Origin: Anaerolineae bacterium
GTDB lineage: Bacteria > Chloroflexota > Anaerolineae > B4-G1 > DUEL01
Assembly: GCA_034435875.1 (NCBI GenBank)
Contig: DAOTWL010000023.1
Span: forward strand, 1-57,402
Reading direction: 5' to 3'
Length of the DNA: 57,402 nt
Shown here piece after piece: positions 6,109 through 57,402 of this stretch. Position numbers and translations under genes: made by a program. A model generated the notes under the pieces. It saw only the letters and a list, made by a program, of their open reading frames with translations. It was not told the origin of the DNA and ran no database searches. Position 1 is the first letter of the stretch. Each line of letters begins with the position of its first letter.

Positions 6109-7056
6109 TTACTCCATCGTCCCGAAGCGGGTGAGGGCCACCGCGCCCAGCCCCGCGCAGGTGACCAGGAAGCCTCCCACCCAGCCCACACAGGGGATCA
6201 GCCCCAGCAGGTCGCTGAGCAGCGTCAGGAGTCCTGCGCCCAGCGCGGCGGTCCAGAACGGCGAGACAGCCCGGGAGGTGAGGTTCGGCATCAGCCGCTC
6301 GCCGATGACGATGCCGATCGCCAGCCAGCCGAAGAGGACAGCGACCACCAGGGCGATGGCGACCGCGACCCCCACCGGGGAGAGGCAGAGGGTGATGACG
6401 AGCCCGAGGGTGAGCAGGATGCCGACGACCAGCGTCAGCAGGCCCATGCCGAAGGTGGGAAGGGGCCGCTCCAGCGCGCTCCGGCCCACCCGCGCCGCCG
6501 CCCGGGGCCACAGCAGGGCCACCAGCCCGGCCAGTCCGGCCATCACCACCGCCCGCAGGAGAATCTCCACCCCCCGCAGAGCGACCTGGAACATCAGTGC
6601 GGGCAGTCCGTCCGAAGGGAAGTACGGGTAGGTGGGAATTCTCACCCACCACCAGTGCCACCAGGAGGGAGGGTTCACCAGTTGCTGGCCGCGCACGACG
6701 GCACCCGTTTCCCGCTCCAGCGTTCCCCCCAGGGTCACTACACTGCCCTCCACCCGAGCCGTCCTTCTCAAGAGCAGGTCGCCGCCGAAGGCCACGACGT
6801 CCCGCTCCACAGTGCCAGCGATTTCCACGTCGCCGCCCCAGGCCACCACACTGCCCTCTACCCGGCTATCCGCCTCAATCCGCACGTCGCCGCCGAAGAC
6901 AATGAGGTCTCCCGCCAGCGTCTGGCCGCTCTGAAGGGTGAAATCTCCCCAGACAATCTGGCCCGGCGGCTGTCCGTCCGAGGCAAAGGCCGGTGTGGCT
7001 ATCACCAGCATCGTCACAGCAATCAGAAGAGTTTGCAGAACGCGTGGGAATCGCAT
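6109..7056 (-). CDS. bactofilin-like beta-helical repeat domain fused to a polytopic membrane domain
   Basis: ORF 6109..7653 trimmed to ATG 7056, which follows GGAGGT. Signal/TM segment MRFPRVLQTLLIAVTMLVIATPAFA. Repeats GGDVRIEADSRVEGSVVAWGGDVEIAG..FGGDLLL, then 4-5 hydrophobic helices. Confidence 0.7.
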   Translation of the reverse strand: MRFPRVLQTLLIAVTMLVIATPAFASDGQPPGQIVWGDFTLQSGQTLAGDLIVFGGDVRIEADSRVEGSVVAWGGDVEIAGTVERDVVAFGGDLLLRRTARVEGSVVTLGGTLERETGAVVRGQQLVNPPSWWHWWWVRIPTYPYFPSDGLPALMFQVALRGVEILLRAVVMAGLAGLVALLWPRAAARVGRSALERPLPTFGMGLLTLVVGILLTLGLVITLCLSPVGVAVAIALVVAVLFGWLAIGIVIGERLMPNLTSRAVSPFWTAALGAGLLTLLSDLLGLIPCVGWVGGFLVTCAGLGAVALTRFGTME

Positions 7057-7127
7057 GGGAATACCTCCGTTATTCTCCTCACCCCTCCCCCGGCGGCGAA
7101 GGCGGCGGGGGTGGGGTGAGGAAATGC

Positions 7128-8006
7128 TTACTCCAACTCCAGCGTCACATTGCCGATCCCGGCGGTCAAGGTCACCTCCAGGGTTGCCCCGGCCTGCCCG
7201 TAGGCCGGATTGCGGTACACGCCCCCGGAGAGTTGCCAGTCGCCACGGGTCTGCACATTGCTCAGCCCGCCTTCCACCACCACCCGTACCCCCACATCCC
7301 GGGGGAAGCGGAGCGTCAGAGACCCAACGCCGGCCGTCACCTGGATCCGGGCAGAATCGGCCCAGGGACCGGTGAAATCCAGCATCAGGTTGCCGATCCC
7401 GCCCTCCACCTGAACATCCCGGGGGCTGGCGTAGCCGATTCCCCGGACCTCCACGTTGGCCGCCCCGGCGCGGAGCCGGAGCCAGTCCATCGGGACGGTG
7501 ATCGGCGCATCCCAGCGCACGACCATATCCGAGGCGCCGGTCTCCAGGGAGAAATCGGTCAGCGCCAGGCCGCCCAGGTCCAGCCGCCCCTTTGCCGCAC
7601 CGACCTGGAGTTTCAGACTCATCGGCACGCGGGGGGCCAGGGCGAGGTCCCATTCATTCTCCGCTCCGGGGCCGGGCATGCCCCGGGTGTCCGGCTGGGC
7701 GACCTTCAGGACCCCGTCTTTCCAGGTCACTTCGGGCTTCCATGCCGGGACGTTGGTCCGGAAGAGGCCGGAGAAGAGCAGGTCCGGCTCTCCGGCGGTT
7801 AACGTCAGTTCCCCCACGCCCAGGGTGATTTTCACCTGGGCGGCCGTCGTGCCCTCCAGAGGAATCTCCTCCCGGTACTCCTGCATCGGCCCGACCTCCA
7901 GAGTGGGCACGCCGGGCAGGGAAATGCCGGGGACCGTAATGGTGCATGCCAGACTGCTCAGCACCAGCAGGAACAGTACAGACCAGACGATTCTTTTCCG
8001 CATCAT
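7128..8006 (-). CDS. lipoprotein with toastrack-like (DUF2154/DUF4097-like) beta-rich domain
   Basis: Lipobox LSSLAC. Repetitive beta segments (LGVGELTLTAG, QVGAAKGRLDLGG, VTAGVGSLTLRF, LTAGIGNVTLELE). Confidence 0.6.
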   Translation of the reverse strand: MMRKRIVWSVLFLLVLSSLACTITVPGISLPGVPTLEVGPMQEYREEIPLEGTTAAQVKITLGVGELTLTAGEPDLLFSGLFRTNVPAWKPEVTWKDGVLKVAQPDTRGMPGPGAENEWDLALAPRVPMSLKLQVGAAKGRLDLGGLALTDFSLETGASDMVVRWDAPITVPMDWLRLRAGAANVEVRGIGYASPRDVQVEGGIGNLMLDFTGPWADSARIQVTAGVGSLTLRFPRDVGVRVVVEGGLSNVQTRGDWQLSGGVYRNPAYGQAGATLEVTLTAGIGNVTLELE

Positions 8007-8020
8007 CCCTCCTTCTCACT

Positions 8021-8069
8021 CACGTTTCACGTTTCACGTTTCACGTTTCACGTTTCTCTCTTCACGTTT
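8021..8069. repeat. heptanucleotide tandem repeat (CACGTTT)x5 plus 2 degenerate units
   Basis: cacgttt at 8021, 8028, 8035, 8042, 8049 and 8063. Fills the gap between the anti-sigma stop and the toastrack start. Confidence 0.9.
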
Positions 8070-8605
8070 CAGGAAGCCACCGGCTGCCAGCGGCGCAGCA
8101 GGCCCCACCACAGGCCCCCCAGAAGCAGCGCCGTCGTCAGGATGCAGAGGGCCAGCGGCAGGGTCTGGACGACCAGCGCGCCGGCCAGCAGGCCCAGGGA
8201 GTTCAAAAGCAGGCGGGCCGCCCCGAGAAGGTGTTCCAGCAGGACGCCCCCACTGTGGGAGAGGGCCACCAGGAAGCCCGCCCAGCCGGGCAATGTCCAG
8301 AGAATCGGGAGGAACCCGACGAAAAGGACAAGAGCGGTCCCCGCGGCCAGCGCCAGGCCACCGAAAACGGCGCGCCGCCGGGCCCGGCGCCGGTCCATCT
8401 GCGCCATCACCCGCCCGACGAACCCCGGCGGTGGGGAAAGGATCGGCGCATGGCGCAGGACTTCCTCGGCGGCCTGCAATTGCTCCCACCGGACCCGGCA
8501 GCGATCACAGGCCACCAGGTGAGCCTGCAGGGCCTGCCACTCTTCGTCCGGCAGTTCGCCATCCAGTGCTTTCATCATTTTTTCCAGAGCCGTTTCACAC
8601 TCCAT
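8069..8605 (-). CDS. anti-sigma factor (zf-HC2 type, membrane-anchored)
   Basis: Trimmed to ATG 8605. MECETALEKMMKALDGEL..HLVACDRCRVRWEQL, followed by TM helices. Overlaps the sigma gene end by 11 nt. Confidence 0.75.
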   Translation of the reverse strand: MECETALEKMMKALDGELPDEEWQALQAHLVACDRCRVRWEQLQAAEEVLRHAPILSPPPGFVGRVMAQMDRRRARRRAVFGGLALAAGTALVLFVGFLPILWTLPGWAGFLVALSHSGGVLLEHLLGAARLLLNSLGLLAGALVVQTLPLALCILTTALLLGGLWWGLLRRWQPVAS

Positions 8606-9191
8606 TTTCCCTACTCCGTATTCCGTACTCCGTACTCCGCACTCCGCATTCCCTACTCCCGGCTTCCTCCCCCAGCATCTGGGCCAGCGCCAGACGGGCA
8701 CGGTGGAGCCGGGATTTCACCGCGCTGACCGTGCTGCCCAGAATCTGGGCCATCTCTTCGTAGGAGCAATCGTACCAGTACCGCAGAGTAACCGCCGCCC
8801 GGTCCTCGGCGGGGAGGCGCATCAGCAATCGCTGGATTCGCTCCCGGGTCTCCCAGGCGACAACCGCATCGTCGGGGTTGGCGCCGACTCCTCCGAGGAT
8901 GAGTTCGTCATCCAGTACCAGGACGGGCCGACGGCGGCGGATGCGGTCCACGCAGTAGTGGGCCGTGATGGAGAGCAACCAGTTCCGGAAAGGACGGGCG
9001 GGGTCGTACTGGCTCAGGTTGCGGAAGGCCCGCAGAAAGGTCTCCTGAGCCGCGTCCTCCGCCTCCATCCGTTCCCCCAGCATCCGGTAGGCCAGGTTGT
9101 ACACCGGCGTCTGGTAGAGGTGGACCAGATGGGCGAAGGCGTCTGCATCTCCCTTTTGGGCTTGCTGGATCCAGGTTGCTTCGTCTATCAT
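8595..9191 (-). CDS. ECF-type RNA polymerase sigma-70 factor
   Basis: Region 2 (FAHLVHLYQTPVYNLAYRMLG..AEDAAQETFLRAF) and region 4 (SYEEMAQILGSTVSAVKSRLHRAR). Confidence 0.9.
   Translation of the reverse strand: MIDEATWIQQAQKGDADAFAHLVHLYQTPVYNLAYRMLGERMEAEDAAQETFLRAFRNLSQYDPARPFRNWLLSITAHYCVDRIRRRRPVLVLDDELILGGVGANPDDAVVAWETRERIQRLLMRLPAEDRAAVTLRYWYDCSYEEMAQILGSTVSAVKSRLHRARLALAQMLGEEAGSRECGVRSTEYGIRSRENGV
8612..8660. repeat. heptanucleotide tandem repeat (TACTCCG-like) x7
   Basis: tactccg tattccg tactccg tactccg cactccg cattccc tactccc. Lies inside the last ~22 codons of the sigma ORF. Confidence 0.9.
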
Positions 9192-9318
9192 CGGCTTCTG
9201 CTAATTATACGTCAGATGGTGCGAAAAGTTGCGGGCAACATGGCCCTTGATTTTACTCACATCTCTTTGGGTAGGACTGCGGAAAACCATGGTCGGCGTT
9301 GGGGGTGGCTCTGAGGAG

Positions 9319-9629
9319 GCCCGGACGTATTGCAGTTTAACAAATTATTTGGGCAATCGCCTGAGGTGGACTTTGCTCCCTCATCCCCCCCTTGCCCCCC
9401 CTCCCCCAGAAGCGGGGGAGAAGGGGGGTTTGAGGGCGGCGGCTTCGCCACCCTCACCCCACCCCTATACCCCTCCCCTCTCCCGCAAGTAGGAGAGGGA
9501 AGGGGCCGGGGGAGGGGTGAGGTCCCCGCCGCCGAAGGCGAGCGGGAGAGGGGCCGGGGGTGAGGCGGGATGAGGGCGAGTCGCAGTTGATTGCCCAAAT
9601 AATTTTTCCAGTTGCAAAACGTCCGGGCT
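9319..9629. mobile_element. MITE-like element: ~45-bp terminal inverted repeats around G-rich palindromes
   Basis: Left arm GCCCGGACGTATTGCAG..AAATTATTTGGGCAATC (9319-9358). Right arm GATTGCCCAAATAATTT..GCAAAACGTCCGGGC (9589-9629). No ORF. Interior consists of GGGGAGGGGTGAGG-type hairpins. Confidence 0.6.
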
Positions 9630-50391: not shown

Positions 50392-51848
50392 CCCCCTTCC
50401 TTCGTCGCTGGGGGTGGCTTCTGGGGTTGCTGTTGGCGCTTCTGGCCTGCGCGCTGATTCCCGTCCCCGGCTACGTCATCATTGCGCCGGGAGGGAACAC
50501 CCCCCTCATCCCTGTCGCGCTGGGCCCGCAGATGCGGCTGGACCCGCCCTTCGCCCGCCCCGGCGACGAAGTCCGCCTCCACGTCACCGACCGTACCCCC
50601 TGGACCCACGTCCTTCTGGCCGTGAACGGCGTCGCCCTCCACCCGGAGTCCTGGGAATCCGGCCCGGGCGGACAGTGGACCTGGACGTTCCACCTGGCCC
50701 TCCCCACCGGCCCGTCGGAAATCGTCTTCTACCACAGTTGCGACACCGGCTGTCGGGAGCGGGGACGGATGATGCTGGGCGAGCCGCCGTCTCCCTCCTC
50801 CGCCCCGCTGCCCACCAAACTGGGGCTGGTCTTCCCCCACCCGGACCGGGACTGGCACGGGCGCAGCGGCTGGGCGGTGGAGGTCACCTACGTCCGGCGG
50901 GCCCAGGAGCCCGGCTGGGGGGTAGACGACCTGGCCGCGAAGGTGTACCGGCATCGGGCGAAGGGGTTGCGGGTGCTGGTGCGGGTGGACTACGACTACA
51001 ACCAGTCCATCCCGCCGACCGGCGACTATCTGGCCCTGGCGGAGTATCTGGACTACCTGGCGCGCCTGGCCCGGGACGACCGTCTCCGGGAAGTCTACGG
51101 CTACGTCCTGGGGAGCAGTTACAACGGCCTGGACCAGAACGCGCTGGCCCCCGACCGTCCGGTGACCCCGGAGTGGTATGCCCGGGTCTTCAACGGCTAC
51201 GGCGAACCCGTCCACCACACCGACAACGCCGTCCAGGTGATGCGGGCCGAAAATCCCCACGTCCGGGTGCTGGTGGGACCGGTCCGGCCCTGGAACACCG
51301 ACCAGGACGGCCTCCACAAGTACCGCGTGGATGCGCCCTGGCTCAACTACATGAACACCCTGGTGCGCGAGGTGGACGAATCGGCCCGGGCGAAGGCCGC
51401 CGCTGGGATCCCCCTGGCCGCCCCGGACGGCTTTGCCGTCCAGGCTCCAGGCCGCCCGGATGCCCCTGAACTGGGCGGGTCCGGCTCCGCAGAGCCTCAG
51501 ACCGACCTCCGGCGGCCGGAATGGAAGGGCGCCCAGGCCGGCTTCCGCGTCTATCGGGAGTGGCTGGACATCATCAACGCCTACCCGTCCACGCGGGGGC
51601 TCCCCGTCTACATCACCTCGGCCAACACCTTCATTCCGGCGGTGGGCGTCCCTCCGGCCCAGAATTATCCCCGGGGCTGGCTCCGTTCGGCCTTGGCGGT
51701 GGTGAACGGCGAGCCTCAGATTCAGGCCCTCTGCTGGTTTCTGGACGACCTGCCCGGGGACACCCAGTGGGAGAACTTCAGCCTGACCCGCCGTCGGGGC
51801 CGCCTGGTGGACGCGGCGGAGGAGTTTGAGGAACTGCTGAAAAGATAG
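50349..51848 (+). CDS. membrane-anchored hypothetical protein, possibly with a glycoside-hydrolase-like TIM-barrel domain
   Basis: TM segment WGWLLGLLLALLACALI, an Ig-like segment, then alternating beta/alpha pattern (GLRVLVRVDYDYNQ, YVLGSSYNG, RVLVGPVRPWN, PVYITSANTF). An in-frame GTG at 50388 gives a GTGA overlap with the kinase stop. Confidence 0.5.
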   Translation: MRTIRPADHAFQIVTPFLRRWGWLLGLLLALLACALIPVPGYVIIAPGGNTPLIPVALGPQMRLDPPFARPGDEVRLHVTDRTPWTHVLLAVNGVALHPESWESGPGGQWTWTFHLALPTGPSEIVFYHSCDTGCRERGRMMLGEPPSPSSAPLPTKLGLVFPHPDRDWHGRSGWAVEVTYVRRAQEPGWGVDDLAAKVYRHRAKGLRVLVRVDYDYNQSIPPTGDYLALAEYLDYLARLARDDRLREVYGYVLGSSYNGLDQNALAPDRPVTPEWYARVFNGYGEPVHHTDNAVQVMRAENPHVRVLVGPVRPWNTDQDGLHKYRVDAPWLNYMNTLVREVDESARAKAAAGIPLAAPDGFAVQAPGRPDAPELGGSGSAEPQTDLRRPEWKGAQAGFRVYREWLDIINAYPSTRGLPVYITSANTFIPAVGVPPAQNYPRGWLRSALAVVNGEPQIQALCWFLDDLPGDTQWENFSLTRRRGRLVDAAEEFEELLKR

Positions 51849-51988
51849 CAGGAAGCAGGAAGTAGGGAGCAGGAAGTAGGAAGTAGGAAGGAAAGATGCA
51901 AGACCTTTTTCCCATCCTGCGTCCTGCATCCTCCGTCCTGCATCCTGCGTCCTGCATCCTGCGTCCTGCATCCATCCCGCATCTTGCG
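51848..51988. repeat. two opposed heptamer-repeat blocks forming a long imperfect hairpin
   Basis: (GCAGGAA/GTAGGAA)x6 at 51848-51889 and (CATCCTG/CGTCCTG)x8-10 at 51912-51988. Each arm unit pairs with its opposite unit at 6 of 7 positions. Confidence 0.9.
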
Positions 51989-51990
51989 CC

Positions 51991-52614
51991 ATGAAGATCC
52001 GGGTTCTGCTGGCCGATGACCATCCCACCCTGCGGCTGGGGCTGCGGGTCCTGCTGGACCGGGAGCCGGATATAGAAGTGGTGGCCGAGGCCGAAAGTGG
52101 GGAGGAGGCCCTGGCGAAGATTCTGGCCCTTCAGCCCGAGGTGGCGGTGCTGGATTGCCAGTTGCCGGGCCTTTCGGGGCCGGCGGTGGCCCGGGAGCTC
52201 CAACGGCGGGGCCTGCCGGTACGGATACTGGCCCTCAGCGCGTACCGGTATGAACACTACATCTGGGGGATGCTGGAGGCCGGGGCGGTGGGCTACCTCC
52301 TAAAGGAGGAGGCACCGGAGGCCATAGTGGCCACCATCCGGTCGGCCGTGCAGGGCGGGATGTACTTCAGCCCCGGTGTAGCGGACCTGGTAAAGGCCCT
52401 GCTGGAAGGCAGAGGCCCGGTGCAGCTGACGAAGCGGGAGCGGGAGGTGTTACGGCTGATGGCGGAGGGGCTGAGCAACAAAGAGATTGCCGTCCGGCTG
52501 GGGGTTTCCGAGCGCACGGCGGCCTTCCACGTGAGCAACGTCCTCCAGAAACTGGGTGCGGCCTCCCGGACCGAGGCGGTGGTGAGGGCGAAGGAGCGGG
52601 GGATGATCGGGTGA
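51991..52614 (+). CDS. NarL/FixJ-family response regulator (REC plus LuxR-type HTH)
   Basis: [20 protein letters not shown] receiver domain. [44 protein letters not shown]. Confidence 0.92.
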
Positions 52615-52623
52615 GGGGGCCAT

Positions 52624-52694
52624 ACCTGTCAATTCTTACAGGTCGCGACCTGTAAGAATTTACAGTAGACAGCGGGCACAGGATGGGTTATACT
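52624..52694 (+). promoter_or_regulatory. copy 1 of the lux-box-like dyads plus conserved promoter cassette
   Basis: ACCTGTCAATTCTTACAGGT (52624-43) and ACCTGTAAGAATTTACAGTA (52648-67). TAGACA (52666-71), 17 nt, TATACT (52689-94). AGGAGG at 52729 and ATG at 52741. Confidence 0.6.
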
Positions 52695-52740
52695 GGAGAT
52701 GCCACCGGTGGAAGGCTGGTGAATAAGCAGGAGGTGCACA

Positions 52741-54303
52741 ATGCACAGGATCAGGCTTCCCTTGGCATTCACTTTGGCCATCACGGCCATGTGGCTCATG
52801 GCTATGATTGCCTACGCAGTGGATCACGGCAGCTGGCCGCAGCGATCGGTGTCTATGCTGACGGCCCAAAGCCCGAAAACGCCGCGTCCCCTCACGTTGA
52901 AGGAAGCCTATCAGTTGCTGCAGGCTCATGTTAGAAAGCTTCCCGAGGAGGCCGTCATCACCGCGCTTCAGAGCGTTGATGTGCCCGGAGACACGGCCGA
53001 TGCCGGCCAGGACGGCCGCCGTAGGGGATGGTTGGGAACGCTTCGGATCCCTGAAGCACAGATCATTGTCCGGGTGGTCGACGGAAGCCTGGTAGACTCG
53101 GTGACGCAACTCCTATCTATAGCATCCCCCGCCCTCCCCGCACCCCTCGTGGATTCACCCGAGGCGCTGCATCGGGTTCGATCTACCGATCCAAACTTCG
53201 GCCCTGCGGAGGACGCGAAAGGCCGGGGCTTCCACTTTCTCCTGAGCGCAGATGAGTCAGGATCGGCTCGCATAGAAGTTGTAGGAGCGATCGGAACACG
53301 GCGAAGCAAAGTCCTGGTGGATGCTCAATCCGGCCGCATCCTCGCCACTCAATCTTACACATGGGGCAAGGAGGGAGGCATCCTGTACTCTGCGGATGGG
53401 GGACGAACCTGGCATACCAGCACCCTGCGTGGGCGGATGGTCAAGGCCATCGCCACGGACCCCCTGGATGACCACGTGGGTTACGCCGTCGCTCCGGATA
53501 CAGCGGGTATCCTTCTTTTCCGTACCCAAGACAGCGGCAGGAGTTGGGAGGAATGGGGCCATTTGCCCTTGGATGCCGGGGATTGGCCTTTTGACATCGT
53601 GGTGATCCGAAACGGCGAAGGACACCGAACCTGGTTTCTTGGAACCTGGACCGGCGTTTGGCAATCCCCGGATGGGCGATCCTGGACCCATATGGCCAGT
53701 GGGCCGACCGGACCAATCCAGTGGCTCGCCCGGCTGAAATCGGGAAGCGGGGATCGGGTGCTGGCCAGCATGACGGCCGGTCCGAATCGCGGGCTCTATA
53801 TCTGGGACGGCCGGCAGTGGAGATGGGCCGCCCGTGGTCGTTATCGGCTCTCCCCTTCATCCGACGAAAGCAGCGTGCTGGCCCTCAATGAGGAGTCCCC
53901 CCGCCAGGCACTGCTTATATCTATAGGAGCAGAACTGCCGATGCACGTACCTGCTCCCATCCTGGATGCCGCCGGAAACTTCCAGCAGGAGAATCGGTGG
54001 CTCGTTCGCTCTCCGATGGGCGGCGTCGGGCTATATCAGAAGGACAAAGGGACTATCAAATGGACATTACCCGGGCCCATCGCCAGCCTTTCCCTCTCCC
54101 CTGCCTTCCCAACCGATGGAGTAGTGCTGGCCGGCGGGTTTCGCAGCGGGATCTTCCGCAGCACGGATGGTGGTCAGCATTGGGAACAGGTGTTGGCGCA
54201 GCCCTCCACCGTGATCCCTGGAAGCGACGAAATCTACGAGATTGTCTTCCTTTCCCCAACTAATGTGCTGGCTATTCAAGGAGGGAGGACAACATGGCAA
54301 TGA
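52741..54303 (+). CDS. secreted or membrane-anchored BNR/sialidase-like beta-propeller protein
   Basis: N-terminal hydrophobic segment. BNR-type repeats SADGGRTW, TQDSGRSW, SPDGRSW and STDGGQHW. Confidence 0.7.
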   Translation: MHRIRLPLAFTLAITAMWLMAMIAYAVDHGSWPQRSVSMLTAQSPKTPRPLTLKEAYQLLQAHVRKLPEEAVITALQSVDVPGDTADAGQDGRRRGWLGTLRIPEAQIIVRVVDGSLVDSVTQLLSIASPALPAPLVDSPEALHRVRSTDPNFGPAEDAKGRGFHFLLSADESGSARIEVVGAIGTRRSKVLVDAQSGRILATQSYTWGKEGGILYSADGGRTWHTSTLRGRMVKAIATDPLDDHVGYAVAPDTAGILLFRTQDSGRSWEEWGHLPLDAGDWPFDIVVIRNGEGHRTWFLGTWTGVWQSPDGRSWTHMASGPTGPIQWLARLKSGSGDRVLASMTAGPNRGLYIWDGRQWRWAARGRYRLSPSSDESSVLALNEESPRQALLISIGAELPMHVPAPILDAAGNFQQENRWLVRSPMGGVGLYQKDKGTIKWTLPGPIASLSLSPAFPTDGVVLAGGFRSGIFRSTDGGQHWEQVLAQPSTVIPGSDEIYEIVFLSPTNVLAIQGGRTTWQ

Positions 54304-54821
54304 TCTGGAAGAACCCAGTGAGGCGCATCCTTCTGATCCTCGGCACGGCAGCGGCTTTCGGAGTGCTGAGCTCCATCGCCATCCCGGTCTGGGCTGGACA
54401 TTATGCGGGATGGTTTACCGGCTACGCCATGGGCAATCGCTATGGAGGAGCCGGGGTGGAGCTCCGACAAGGCCATTTCGCCAATCACTATTATCGCTGG
54501 TGTCCGAACGATCCGGCAGCCTGGTGGACCTGGGGGACTCGCATTGACACGGATAGCCCCATTCGTCAGAGCACTCAATCCGGGGGGAGCATTTACTATA
54601 GCACCTTCTACCTGGAGGACGTGGGGGATCCCAGCTGTTCCATGGGAAATTACTGGGTGGACATCTACTTTGGACGCTGGGAGAACAGACCGCCTTCGGA
54701 TCCGAATTACTGCTACTGCTCCGGAGTGCCCAGCCCCGGATTCTGCTATGCTGCAAGCGCAAATTCCTGTTCTGACGCCATAAACTTTGGCCGGCAGTAC
54801 CGGGGATATACAGGGCCGTAG
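54294..54821 (+). CDS. secreted Cys-rich protein, 3D/DPBB-like domain
   Basis: Signal peptide ILLILGTAAAFGVLSSIAIPVWA. YLEDVGDPSCSMGNYWVDIYFG resembles the 3D-domain Asp motif. The alternative ATG 54300 gives an ATGA overlap. Confidence 0.5.
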   Translation: MAMIWKNPVRRILLILGTAAAFGVLSSIAIPVWAGHYAGWFTGYAMGNRYGGAGVELRQGHFANHYYRWCPNDPAAWWTWGTRIDTDSPIRQSTQSGGSIYYSTFYLEDVGDPSCSMGNYWVDIYFGRWENRPPSDPNYCYCSGVPSPGFCYAASANSCSDAINFGRQYRGYTGP

Positions 54822-54897
54822 GGGCTAGAGGTAGCGGCCGGACGCTGCAGAAGCGTCTGGCCGCTACGTCCCAGGCTCGTTAAACCGATCGTCTGTT

Positions 54898-55689
54898 ATG
54901 AGGGAAAGCACGATGTACCGCTCACTGCGGATATTCGTCAACGTCCTGCTTAGTTTATGGCTTTTTGCCTGTACGTTGCAGGCTACTCAGGTGCCCTCTC
55001 CGACCCAGACGTCCTTACCCCCTTCACCGACGGTAGGACTTCCCCAACCTTCTCCTACTTTGGCCAAGACATCCTTAACTCCCTCTCCCGCTGTGGGAAC
55101 ACCCGATTGGTATTCGCTGTTGCCGCCCATCCCGGAACCTGCTCCAACCCCTGAGCAACTTTGGCCCTCCATTCCCCCACCCACCCCGGAGCCTCGGCAA
55201 ATCCTGGGCGGTGGAACCATCGACGATGGGCCCTTCACCTTCACCCTTTGGGTAATCCGAGACCCAGCCTTCAGCCACAACCCTGCGACCCCCTCGTTAT
55301 ACAGCGACATCGAGGGCATGGGAATCCACGGGATGTGGGTGTACAACGCAAAAGAGACCCTCATTGGGCCTGTTGATGAATACTGGGGGCTTCCCTTTCC
55401 CAAAGACCTGTCCTTGGTCCTCCCTGGCGGATATGCTCGCCCGCTCCCCACGATGGAACACCCACTGCTGGAGCCGGGTTGGGGCGGCGGGGGAGAGCGC
55501 GGAATTTTTATATCCCCTCGGAGTCGTTCCACGGGTTTAGTGAAAGTGGGCTTTTTCCTGATCACCCCGAAAGGCCCCTATGGGGCCTGTATTCAATTCA
55601 AGCTCACGCCGGACCTCAAAAGTATCGATCCTGCGACCATCACTCTGGATCATCTGCCGTGCGGCGAATTCGCTGCTTCAGCCCCTTAA
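54898..55689 (+). CDS. hypothetical lipoprotein with a Pro/Ser/Thr-rich linker
   Basis: Lipobox LWLFAC and low-complexity PSPT linker. No recognisable domain. Confidence 0.55.
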   Translation: MRESTMYRSLRIFVNVLLSLWLFACTLQATQVPSPTQTSLPPSPTVGLPQPSPTLAKTSLTPSPAVGTPDWYSLLPPIPEPAPTPEQLWPSIPPPTPEPRQILGGGTIDDGPFTFTLWVIRDPAFSHNPATPSLYSDIEGMGIHGMWVYNAKETLIGPVDEYWGLPFPKDLSLVLPGGYARPLPTMEHPLLEPGWGGGGERGIFISPRSRSTGLVKVGFFLITPKGPYGACIQFKLTPDLKSIDPATITLDHLPCGEFAASAP

Positions 55690-55700
55690 TACCGCGCCGG

Positions 55701-55910
55701 GAGCTCACAGCCCGCTGGAGCCAGTGGACGGAGCGGGAACGGGAGATGTTGCGGTGGATGGCCCAGGGGTTGAGCAACCAGGAGACCGCCCGGGAGCTCG
55801 GCCTGGCCGTCCGGACGGTGGATTTTCACGTGGGGAACGTCCTGCAGAAGTGGGGAGTGATCTCGCGGCTGGAAGCGGTGCTCTGGGCAAAGGCGCACGG
55901 GTTCCTGTGA
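55701..55910 (+). pseudogene. LuxR-type HTH remnant (no receiver or ligand domain)
   Basis: ELTARWSQWTEREREMLRWMAQGLSNQETARELGLAVRTVDFHVGNVLQKWGVISRLEAVLWAKAHGFL aligns with the C-terminus of the 51991-52614 protein. Its upstream part overlaps the lipoprotein gene in another frame. Confidence 0.55.
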
Positions 55911-55980
55911 CCTGTAGGTTCCTACAGGTCCGAACCCGGTAATTTTCACAGTAGACAGCGGCCACAGGATGGGTTATACT
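55910..55980 (+). promoter_or_regulatory. copy 2 of the lux-box-like dyad plus conserved promoter cassette
   Basis: ACCTGTAGGTTCCTACAGGT (55910-29, 9-bp perfect arms). TAGACA (55952-57), 17 nt, TATACT (55975-80). 55948-56006 differs from 52662-52720 at only 2 positions. Confidence 0.6.
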
Positions 55981-56029
55981 GGAGATGCCACCGGCGGAAG
56001 GCTGGGGGGAGTATCACAAGCCATAGGAG

Positions 56030-56420
56030 GTAAGGAACTGTCTTCCACCAGCGGGCAAGCCAAATAGAAATCCAGCAGGCCACCGCCACCAGGGGCGTCC
56101 AGGTATCCCCGGCCTCTGCCCGCTGGAAACGAGGCCAGCCTAATTCCTCCTTGCGGAAACGGAGGGGTGGCTCTACCGGCCCGCGGTGGACGTAAGCCTC
56201 CCAGATGGTTTGGGCTGTTACCGTGATCCCAGAGGGCCCGATGGCCGGGGGCAACCAGGCCAGCCAGAGTGGCTCAGGAGGCTGGGAACGCTCCTGATGA
56301 ATGCCGGCGCGAACCACGTCGTGGGCCAGATCACCGGCTCGGCGCTCAAGCAGGCCCTTCTAGCGTTCCAGGCGCACCCGACCATAGGCTTCGTCTTCTT
56401 TCCGGAACAATGACGAAGGG
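56030..56420 (-). pseudogene. DDE transposase C-terminal remnant (IS701/IS4-like)
   Basis: ..VRLER*KGLLERRAGDLAHDVVRAGIHQ..TIWEAYVHRGPVEPPLRFRKEELGWPRFQRAEAGDTWTPLVAVACWISIWLARW. In-frame TAG at 56360-56362. The N-terminal two-thirds is missing. Confidence 0.45.
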
Positions 56421-56459
56421 GCGTTAACGCTGACGACCACGGTGACCCCAGAGTGTACC

Positions 56460-56491
56460 GGCCCGGAGACAAAATCTCCGGGCCGTTTTTT
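56460..56491 (+). terminator. intrinsic-terminator-like hairpin with T-run
   Basis: GGCCCGGAGA-caaaa-TCTCCGGGCC-g-TTTTTT, adjacent to the 3' end of the DedA gene. Confidence 0.55.
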
Positions 56492-57143
56492 ACCGCCCCA
56501 GCAGGCGCAGGATAGCCTCTATGCTGTAGTACCCGGCCAGGGCAAAGGCGATGTTTTTGATGATTTTCCCGGCCGCACAACTGGTCAGAAACTTCCACAC
56601 CGGGAAGCGAAGCGCGCCCGCAATCATCCCGCCCACGTCAAAGACGGGATTGGGGATGACCGCCAGGACGAAGATAACCCAGACCCCCCAGCGGCGCATC
56701 CAGCCCTGGATGCGGCCATAGATGGGGCGGTCGGAGACCAGGGTCTGGCCGCTGTAGCCCAGCAGGTAGCCCGAAAGTTCCCCCAGCGCCTGCCCGATGC
56801 CGGCCACAATCCCCACCAGCCAGGGGTTGAAGACGCCCCCCAGCACCGAACTGACCGCCAGGCCGGGGATAGGCAGGATGATGGTGGCGTTGCTGAGCAG
56901 CCCGACCAGAAAGACCGCCGCGTAGCCGTAGGCCGCCAGTTCCTGGAGCCGGTCCCGGAAGTAGACCGCCGCCGCCAGCGCGCCAACGATGATGACACCG
57001 GTCAGCACCTGCACCGCGCGCAGGTGAGCCGGAGAGGGAGTTTTGGTTTCTAACCGCAAAGGACGCAACGGGCGCGAAAAGTTTTCCCCCTTTGCGTCCT
57101 CTACGTCCTCTGCGGTGAAAAATACAGCCTTCATCGGATTCAC
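56490..57143 (-). CDS. DedA/VTT-family membrane protein
   Basis: LLSNATIILPIPGLAVSSVLGG and GELSGYLLGY. GTG start at 57143 overlaps the upstream stop (GTGA); the alternative is ATG 57134. Confidence 0.75.
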   Translation of the reverse strand: MNPMKAVFFTAEDVEDAKGENFSRPLRPLRLETKTPSPAHLRAVQVLTGVIIVGALAAAVYFRDRLQELAAYGYAAVFLVGLLSNATIILPIPGLAVSSVLGGVFNPWLVGIVAGIGQALGELSGYLLGYSGQTLVSDRPIYGRIQGWMRRWGVWVIFVLAVIPNPVFDVGGMIAGALRFPVWKFLTSCAAGKIIKNIAFALAGYYSIEAILRLLGR

Positions 57144-57402
57144 CGGGGGATGGGGGCGCCGAGACGAACGACGCGTCGCTCCGGCGGCGCGCCCCGGGTA
57201 GCGTTGCAGCAGTCCACCACCCGCCGCGCCGTCCGGACCACCCGCGCGTAATCCACCGACCGGTGCCCGGTCACGATGACGACACAGTCGGCGGATGCCA
57301 GTGCCTCATCGGTCAGGGGCACCGATTCCAGCGTACAGTTGAGCCGGTAGAAGACGTCCCCGCCGACGGTGAAGCGGGGGATGTAGGGGTCGTGATAGCG
57401 GA
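57140..57402 (-). CDS. nucleotide-sugar (UDP-glucose/GDP-mannose family) dehydrogenase, C-terminal part; 5' end lies outside the window
   Basis: ..RYHDPYIPRFTVGGDVFYRLNCTLESVPLTDEALASADCVVIVTGHRSVDY.., the typical C-terminal domain. The ORF is open to the window edge. Confidence 0.7.
   Translation of the reverse strand, partial: RYHDPYIPRFTVGGDVFYRLNCTLESVPLTDEALASADCVVIVTGHRSVDYARVVRTARRVVDCCNATRGAPPERRVVRLGAPIPR

Follow-up and report, generated by a model that had tools for sequence, protein, structure and literature searches.

In Escherichia coli, NarL binds 7-2-7 inverted-repeat sites near −43.5, abutting the −35 element. Among regulators with a LuxR/GerE-type helix-turn-helix (HTH), Vibrio fischeri LuxR acts at the lux box, ACCTGTAGGATCGTACAGGT (PMC4444344), which is centred at −42.5 of the luxI promoter (PMC3376562). 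In other systems, type VI secretion system (T6SS) effector–immunity modules undergo sequential displacement (PMC5361080), and orphan cdiA-CT/cdiI modules are known (PMC9086364). Here we analyze positions 55701-56491 of a 57,402-nt stretch of contig DAOTWL010000023.1 (in the following, the window) from an Anaerolineae bacterium. A first-pass annotation had described there the second copy of a regulatory cassette with a near-match to the lux box, located behind a decapitated LuxR-type HTH gene and facing a transposase remnant. Either the target gene was lost, it was proposed, or the cassette was part of an insertion sequence (IS) end.

Our analysis suggests, with a probability of about 0.7, that 55701-56040 is the stranded middle of a second, paralogous unit, which consisted of a response regulator (RR) gene, an operator/promoter and a secreted-protein operon. 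We refer to this unit as b-type, as distinct from the a-type of cassette copy 1 and the full RR gene upstream of it. The element appears to be an orphaned relic, produced by ordinary genome decay in an uncultured Thermoflexales (Chloroflexota) bacterium. Regulatory elements of this kind are known, and the order itself has been little studied. The features are as follows:

52624-52719: cassette copy 1, downstream of the full RR gene at 51991-52614
55701-55907, plus strand: HTH-only remnant, the 3' part of a NarL/FixJ-family RR gene, encoding the linker and LuxR/GerE HTH (b-type; Pfam)
55908-55910, plus strand: TGA stop of the HTH remnant, its last base being the first base of dyad A' (from the sequence)
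55910-55929: dyad A', a perfect 9+9 palindrome, ACCTGTAGGTTCCTACAGGT, of the ACCTGT-N8-ACAGGT class, centred at −67.5 from the predicted start
55934-55953: dyad B', the b-type promoter-proximal operator, ACCCGGTAATTTTCACAGTA, centred at −43.5 and overlapping the −35
55948-56005, plus strand: promoter core and 5' leader common to copies 1 and 2
55952-55980, plus strand: predicted sigma-70-type promoter, TAGACA-17-TATACT (promoter scan, 10/12 matches), with a predicted start at ~55987
55989-55994 pairing with 56002-56007, plus strand: small leader hairpin of copy 2, one pair broken
56010-56040, plus strand: b-type leader tail, GAGTATC...GCCATAGGAGG, with the Shine-Dalgarno (SD) sequence GGAGG at 56026-56030 (by-eye alignment with G058:C284 and G002)
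56038-56040, plus strand: CTG occupying the ATG position of b-type cargo genes
56048-56419, minus strand: part of the interior of an NF041680-family transposase gene, lacking both ends and interrupted by an in-frame TAG
56459 to about 56485-56491, plus strand: intrinsic terminator, an 11-bp stem and T6, adjoining the DedA-family gene

The proximal dyad of copy 2, ACCCGGTAATTTTCACAGT, is more than point changes apart from the a-type dyad, ACCTGTAAGAATTKACAGT. As dyad B' it matches sites in two related genomes, ACCTGGTAATTTCCACAGT in G002 and ACTGGTAATTTTCACAGT in G058 (contig C284), except that it has CCG where other b-type sites have CTG. In G002, an RR with a similar linker and HTH is followed by ACCTGGTAATTTCCACAGT, a promoter, a leader and a signal-peptide gene. 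Contig C284 of G058, a genome from a different family of the order, has a layout like that of copy 2: an RR gene (...RTVDFHVSN...GIVP*), a terminator, ACCTGTAGGAATCCACAGGT-CGAA-ACTGGTAATTTTCACAGTAGAC, promoter and leader, with ACCTGTAGGAATCCACAGGT holding the position of dyad A'. This leader ends in GAGTATCGTTGCCATAGGAG, followed after 8 nt by the ATG of a secreted protein (MRKFKFLSVF...); the leader of copy 2 ends in GAGTATCACAAGCCATAGGAGG, followed after 7 nt by the CTG at the ATG position. The HTH remnant and the G002 regulator, 61% identical, have in common the subtype residues of a W-rich linker, RTV-FHVGN and RLEAV-WAK--GFL. Because of its b-type dyads, layout and HTH subtype residues, copy 2 appears to be the remainder of a paralogous b-type RR/cassette/cargo unit and not a duplicate of copy 1. 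Intact units of this type exist in both G002 and G058.

The cassette itself had been taken for a genuine regulatory element present more than once, and the alignment of copies that was suggested at that time (BLAST and profile searches) indeed revealed a recurrent family of box-promoters. Six were found in this genome, more than had been recognized in the first-pass annotation: copies 1 and 2, copy 3 (13392-13336, minus strand, in the window upstream of a PA14-domain protein gene), and one each on contigs C27, C168 and C29. The arrangement was present in at least 10 of 61 related genomes, from three families of the order, the sites in relatives numbering more than 20, and a scan of named-species genomes returned 14 loci in metagenome-assembled genomes labelled Anaerolineae, Anaerolineales, Thermoflexales or Chloroflexi. 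What does not vary is a dyad, ACCTGT-N8-ACAGT, centred at −43.5, whose last base opens the −35 TAGAC(A/G), followed by a 17-nt spacer and the −10. About half of the boxes stand after the stop of an RR gene that encodes a LuxR-type HTH, some of them with an intervening terminator, and nearly all have an SD-ATG and a signal peptide within ~60 nt downstream (about 45-60 nt). At the orthologous locus, which encodes a histidine kinase, a 499-aa protein and the RR, the cassette follows the RR stop in the window's own genome (G000), G001 and G006; the G001 cassette has two dyads, ACCTGTGGAAATCCACAGGT.

Three of the copies in this genome are less complete or more diverged. Box-promoters C168:673-727(+), ACCTGTCAATCTTTACAGTAGACA-17-TAGAAT, and C29:4341-4277(−), ACCTGTCAATTTCTACAGTAGACG-17-TATAAT, the latter preceding a lipoprotein-like signal peptide, are probable regulon members. 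Copy 3 comprises the proximal dyad and core only, with no leader hairpin (GATGCCA, then TTGAGTATC); the gene for the PA14-domain protein (13089-11176) is located ~250 nt downstream of it. In G011, a PA14 gene directly follows the RR gene, with no box, and the PA14 gene is tied to the regulator in two different ways, by copy 3 and by the adjacency in G011.

Copies 1 and 2 have the same promoter, TAGACA-17-TATACT, with identical hexamers and spacing, at 52666-52694 and 55952-55980, respectively. With starts predicted 7 nt past the −10, at 52701 and 55987, the distal dyads of both copies are centred at −67.5, reproducing the distance in the first-pass annotation. Its description of dyad A' could likewise be read directly from the sequence: the palindrome at 55910-55929 has arms that are perfect over 9 bp, it begins on the A of the TGA that ends the HTH remnant, and it matches the V. 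fischeri lux box at 18/20 positions, differing only at the central positions 10 and 13. For a genome of 3.19 Mb, base composition predicts 0.11 sites with the exact pattern ACCTGT-N8-ACAGGT, and three were found (in copy 1, copy 2 and contig C27). Each of them comes immediately after the coding end of a LuxR-type HTH. Because of this enrichment and placement, we consider the arms meaningful. The same does not apply to the centre: AGGTTCCT in dyad A' agrees with the lux-box centre AGGATCGT at 6/8 positions, but this is not significant, since other family members keep the arms and have unrelated centres (CAATTCTT, AAGAATTT, GGAAATCC and AAAGATTT); one such match among ~20 dyads is expected by chance. 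The real similarity to the lux box lies in the arms, and conserved arms with variable centres should be expected of an operator for an HTH dimer. In a metagenome scan, the exact 20-mer ACCTGTAGGTTCCTACAGGT was found on one unrelated contig, Ga0075418_10149472 (2275-2294, 66% G+C), where it is intergenic, upstream of TATATCAAT; otherwise this contig has no homology to the window.

Compared with the described systems, the locus combines features of two. Its 20-bp inverted repeat has the same arms, ACCTGT...ACAGGT, and the same CTG-N10-CAG core as the V. fischeri lux box. In common with the LuxR-dependent luxI promoter it has a class II geometry, in which the proximal site, here B' at −43.5, overlaps the −35, and its regulator uses a LuxR/GerE-type HTH, as does V. 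fischeri LuxR. Unlike in V. fischeri, the regulator is presumably a phosphorylation-controlled REC–HTH protein and not a receptor for acyl-homoserine lactone (AHL), the 18/20 dyad is the distal one, and the host is a Chloroflexota bacterium. With NarL/FixJ-family promoters, the locus shares the regulator family, a dimer site at about −43.5, and a regulon of several promoters that have the site in common. As in class II promoters of this family, a regulator with REC and GerE domains is encoded near the site, and the dyad overlaps the −35 ahead of several genes. In contrast to NarL promoters, the half-sites and their spacing are lux-type (20 bp) and not 7-2-7 heptamers, and an invariable TAGAC −35 and a conserved leader are joined to the box. 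We interpret the cassette as an operator–promoter to which the RR would bind, in a two-component regulon of secreted proteins.

A 23-nt pattern of the cassette type, ACCTGTNAGAANTNNCAGTAGAC, was also found in intergenic positions in seven Pseudomonas species (P. fluorescens-group genomes). At the two loci that were checked (L061 and L063), the box is fused to TAGAC, with a 17-nt spacer and then TATAAA or TATAAC. Several of the Pseudomonas loci lie upstream of genes for ~150-aa proteins. The Pseudomonas sites have no LuxR-family gene beside them.

The leader gave little indication of a conserved RNA structure. RNAalifold on 11 leaders produced a 5-bp consensus stem with a weak covariation term of −0.25 kcal/mol, and a scan of 51500-57402 against Rfam (E<=1) gave no match at the cassette and only spurious miRNA matches, to heptamer repeats at ~51850-51970. 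Because there is almost no compensatory change in the stem, we make no claim for a structured RNA.

The upstream part of the element agrees with its earlier description as a decapitated LuxR HTH. The remnant matched Pfam GerE (PF00196) with 67.4 bits (E 8e-19; cut-off 23.5), a Pfam search of it found no receiver or ligand domain, and it has no usable start codon. The protein encoded at 51991-52614, by contrast, has REC and GerE domains and matches NarL-type NCBIfam models. The two HTHs had been judged to be about 50% identical by eye; they are indeed related, but the figure was slightly low, the measured identity being 56-60%. The closest solved domains to the remnant HTH are those of LiaR, VraR and NarL. 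Homology to RRs starts at ~55701, 12 nt past the TAA (55687-55689) of a 263-aa gene, the last in a lower-G+C three-gene islet, and the junction (55690-55700) adjoins this stop. The best relatives of the remnant in a six-frame search of 145 genomes of the order are 61-64% identical. Most likely, the remnant is a pseudogene.

Several other short-frame HTH matches from this search were simply cut by contig ends (G007, G094, G110, G030 and G058). On contig G041:C101 (hit 6196-6399), not at a contig end, an RR gene has an in-frame TAG between receiver and HTH (..DKGARAQ*LIEAIRAAAVG..), which is either a pseudogene or a sequencing error. We also considered the window RR as a chimera, with the remnant as its original C-terminus, and rejected this, as the a-type RR is a conserved orthologue in 7/8 genus members and it is the RR of G002 that is chimeric. 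Exact-protein look-ups with the 263-aa protein, the RR and the DedA-family protein returned no match on record.

Downstream, nothing resembling cargo follows the CTG position, and transposase homology begins at 56048, which places the junction at about 56037-56048. Relatives align only from the stop of the DedA-family gene (56491) rightwards. The exception is G005, a member of the same genus, which aligns from 56460; this homology takes in the plus-strand terminator, which in G005 stands after the stop of a gene for a 492-aa-type secreted protein. In both G005 and G008, the gene converging on the DedA-family gene encodes the 492-aa secreted protein. G008 has the same gene order as G005 and a different terminator; its 492-aa gene is preceded by one for a 228-aa protein and, further upstream, by a b-like RR with a truncated HTH. 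From these comparisons, the terminator in the window appears to be the last relic of a lost plus-strand operon that converged on the DedA-family gene, the cargo deletion being associated with an IS that itself decayed. Of the two alternatives left by the first-pass annotation, loss of the target gene is favoured both by the G005 terminator and by the b-type cassettes of G002 and G058, which drive signal-peptide genes.

In the closest relative (G008:C219), the b-like RR beside the DedA-family gene is cut inside the HTH, after ..AAGKSNKS, by lower-G+C DNA with the 228-aa and 492-aa secreted-protein genes. This truncation is at the 3' end, the mirror image of that in the window remnant, which is at the 5' end. 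The G008 RR was tested as an orthologue of the remnant and rejected, being ~50% identical in the overlapping part.

Taken together, we propose that in a live unit, dimers of the RR's LuxR/GerE HTH would bind 20-bp dyads with ACCTGT/ACAGGT arms. The dyad at −43.5 would overlap the −35 TAGACA in class II activator geometry, with an optional second dyad 24 bp upstream, at −67.5. Binding would switch on the sigma-70-type promoter, and the transcript would open with a short hairpin leader and a strong SD sequence. In copy 2, as the sequence comparison shows, the RR gene is cut just upstream of the linker, leaving the HTH without a usable start, and the cargo is absent from the start-codon position on, with the doubly truncated transposase fragment in its place; of the old operon, only the terminator remains. 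The resident RR can probably still bind dyad A', and the promoter may fire an orphan transcript of ~500 nt, antisense through the transposase fragment to the terminator. No function is expected beyond, at most, that of a decoy site.

The first-pass annotation had also pointed out that the non-coding core is better conserved than the HTH genes beside it, which our comparison confirmed. Between 55948-56005 and 52662-52719, 56/58 positions are identical, and for the whole 59-nt core the match to the a-type copies of this genome is 58/60. From −35 to +20, copies 1 and 2 are about 97% identical, compared with about 69% nucleotide identity for the HTH coding sequences and 14/20 for dyads A and A'; dyads B and B' are of different types, and the leader tails are unrelated. 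Within this genome, the cores of C27, copy 2 and copy 3 are 99%, 97% and 93% identical, respectively, to that of copy 1, and a similar core is found in the b-type cassette of G002. Spacers and leaders are quite different in the orthologous a-type cassettes of G006 and G001, as they are in the b-type cassette of G058, so the core is not under universal constraint. A near-identical core amid b-type flanks probably reflects short-tract gene conversion between cassette copies. Copy 2 thereby provides a natural dissection of the cassette, indicating which parts travel together and which are homogenised.

Several points weigh against the interpretation of copy 2 as a decayed b-type unit. The high core identity could in principle reflect selection, and the G002 core is also similar. 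The remnant frame is still open over 72 codons with a strong GerE score, which means either that the decapitation is recent or that the remnant is still somehow used. No orthologue of the remnant above 64% identity was found in the 145 genomes, and so the full-length b-type gene from which it would descend in this lineage was not encountered. Finally, RR binding to the dyads is deduced from position, symmetry and co-occurrence only, and the start site, promoter activity and RR dependence are predictions.

The relic could also have a different origin, the displacement of a resident b-type 3' end. In this route, one-sided homologous recombination or a long-target-duplication insertion would have pushed the b-type 3' end and its promoter downstream. 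The three-gene islet at 52741-55689 has a G+C content of 58-61%, compared with 67-69% in the genes for the kinase and the RR, and direct repeats of the HTH end plus cassette (52405-52719 and 55692-56005) flank it on both sides. The phenomenon is known for other cargo, as insertion with long target duplication (PMC2853133), as homology-facilitated illegitimate recombination (PMC3240628), and as the T6SS displacement cited above (PMC5361080). An insert of deviating G+C, the absence of mobility genes, and direct repeats of more than 30 bp all agree with the description of long target duplications (PMC2853133). However, the repeats in that description are near-identical, whereas the two HTH parts in the window are only 69% identical. 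The a-type RR is, moreover, the conserved orthologue at this locus in 7/8 genus members, and among the genomes compared, we found no relative with an empty b-type site or in a pre-insertion state. The b-like RR beside the DedA-family gene in G008 suggests instead that there were two tandem units. It is possible, though we hold it to be clearly the less probable case, that the islet arrived along with the 3' end of an a-type RR gene and its cassette and was inserted in an originally b-type RR gene; the alternative origin is a pair of tandem paralogous units that suffered a deletion.

What speaks for displacement is that the same kind of scar recurs: 5'-truncated RR remnants beside lower-G+C cargo were found in at least five other places, in G002, G005, G013, G035 and the window genome's own contig C27. 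In the G002 RR (G002:C27:158000-176000, reverse, ~7049-9600), residues 1-85 are 90% identical to the window RR, while the rest is divergent, b-type, and has a longer W-rich linker. Behind the cargo lies an a-like HTH remnant, in which an H has been changed to P, followed by a terminator and the decayed dyads ACCTGTAGAACTCTACGGGT / ACCTGTAGAAAGTGATTGT. G035:C56 (1-9000, reverse) is a kinase/499-aa-type protein/RR locus in another family, with nested duplications of two different RR 3' ends, one of 268 nt (88% identity) and one of 286 nt (74%). Each duplicate precedes a promoter and secreted-protein genes. G035:C4 and G013:C53 have a single remnant each, ahead of a promoter, and G005:C209 has two mid-receiver fragments between low-G+C genes. 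The 2417-bp contig C27 of the window genome has a 109-nt identical end overlap that closes it into a 2,308-bp cycle, with an RR fragment from ~residue 65, an a-type cassette, a gene for a 236-aa secreted protein (46% G+C), and a WD40 protein gene (53% G+C) whose stop adjoins the RR fragment. This fragment is 97-100% identical to the window RR in the receiver part and 82-92% in the HTH, and the cassette is 99% identical to copy 1. C27 might represent a circular molecule, a second locus or a tandem insertion that a sub-population carries in its RR gene.

These remnants resemble the displaced orphan modules of T6SS and cdiA-CT/cdiI loci in that the 3' end of a 5'-truncated gene lies downstream of newer, lower-G+C cargo, in that the insert has no recombinase, and in that remnants are stacked at one locus in relatives. 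They differ in that what is displaced here is a DNA-binding domain with an operator and promoter and not a toxin tip with an immunity gene, and in that the window repeats are old or heterologous (69%), with no empty site found.

Alternatively, copy 2 might be a functional orphan, with the operator/promoter kept by selection to produce a non-coding or antisense RNA (~55987-56485) or to act as a decoy that titrates the RR. Consistent with this, copy 2 retains an intact −35, −10, dyad A' and leader, its core and those of live copies agree at 97%, and a plus-strand terminator lies ~500 nt downstream. We nevertheless regard this as unlikely. The transcribed stretch is a decayed transposase fragment that has no homologue at this position in the relatives, dyad B' is altered in its conserved CTG, and the nhmmer score of copy 2 (42.8 bits) is below that of the a-type copies (57-59 bits). 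Gene conversion accounts for the core identity without selection, and no Rfam family matched.

It is more doubtful still that the HTH-only frame is a working small regulator of the GerE/PedR type, acting as a constitutive DNA-binding domain on the adjacent operator. Stand-alone LuxR-type HTH proteins do exist, and the open frame of the remnant, besides its 67-bit GerE score, matches the NCBIfam PedR model (74 aa) with E 9e-13. One HTH-only frame on G035:C56 has a GTG start with GGAG 4-5 nt upstream and might, by its sequence, be expressed. In the window, however, we found no in-frame ATG, GTG or TTG with an SD sequence that would yield the whole HTH domain: the first in-frame ATG (55746) would cut half of HTH helix 1, and the GTG at 55659, which lacks an SD, falls within the gene before the remnant. 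Decay is also plain to see in other remnants, as the H-to-P change in G002 and a frameshift in G035:C4.

The reading of the ~60-nt cassette as the terminal part of the adjoining IS, which would make copies 1 and 2 both IS-end relics, has in its favour the adjacency to the transposase fragment and is very improbable. The transposase remnant had been recognized correctly: 56048-56419 (minus strand) matches positions 243-370/439 of NCBIfam NF041680 (E 2.4e-10), its 40 bits falling short of the curated 440-bit cut-off for the full-length protein. It is interrupted by one in-frame TAG and lacks ~240 N-terminal and ~70 C-terminal codons, so neither end of the IS is present and the true end has been deleted. 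Intact copies of this transposase were located; those in G003:C307 and G029:C46 are 62-63% identical to the fragment in amino acid and 68-69% in nucleotide sequence. We compared 55880-56045 and copy 1 with the intact NF041680 loci in G003, G029, G001, G028, G038 and G056 and with a second fragment, on C71, including up to ~1.5 kb of flank per side where the contig allowed. No cassette-like sequence was detected at any of these six loci or the C71 fragment; the only similarity was inside the transposase gene, at 56070-56398. Because these intact loci, over the flanks compared, carry no cassette sequence, the IS-end interpretation is contradicted. The remaining cassette copies adjoin ordinary genes, between an RR gene or intergenic DNA and an SD-ATG, with no transposase nearby.

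A true AHL lux box bound by an autoinducer-binding LuxR homologue can be dismissed despite the 18/20 identity and the CTG-N10-CAG core, as no Autoind_bind domain (PF03472) was detected anywhere in the genome by a search that was positive in the E. coli control, the regulators beside the cassettes have receiver and GerE domains, the 18/20 dyad lies at −67.5 from a start predicted from the −10 and not at −42.5 (PMC3376562), the degenerate B' being centred at −43.5, and with so many members in the family, a central match of this kind falls within chance. A search for LuxI (PF00765) found no match in the genome, yet none in any control genome either. For annotators, the locus is a warning that lux-box look-alikes exist outside AHL quorum sensing, and that, as in this Chloroflexota bacterium, such sequences can serve as operators for LuxR-family regulators with a receiver domain.

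Copy 2 alone is a decayed regulatory module, and changes little. More tentatively, the Thermoflexales histidine kinase/499-aa/RR locus might be a recombinase-less hotspot for gene capture, in which the RR 3' end with its operator/promoter serves as a portable homology arm; we consider this a possibility with the odds against it. If true, foreign low-G+C genes for secreted proteins would plug in under the regulator's control, and older modules would be shoved downstream, leaving remnants like 55701-55907, while gene conversion keeps the cores alike. The regulon would then grow by module stacking, like rhs, cdiA and T6SS effector arrays. The scars in G002, G005, G013, G035 and C27 may show a general route of regulon growth, in which genes are wired to a two-component system via recombination at the 3' end of the regulator gene.

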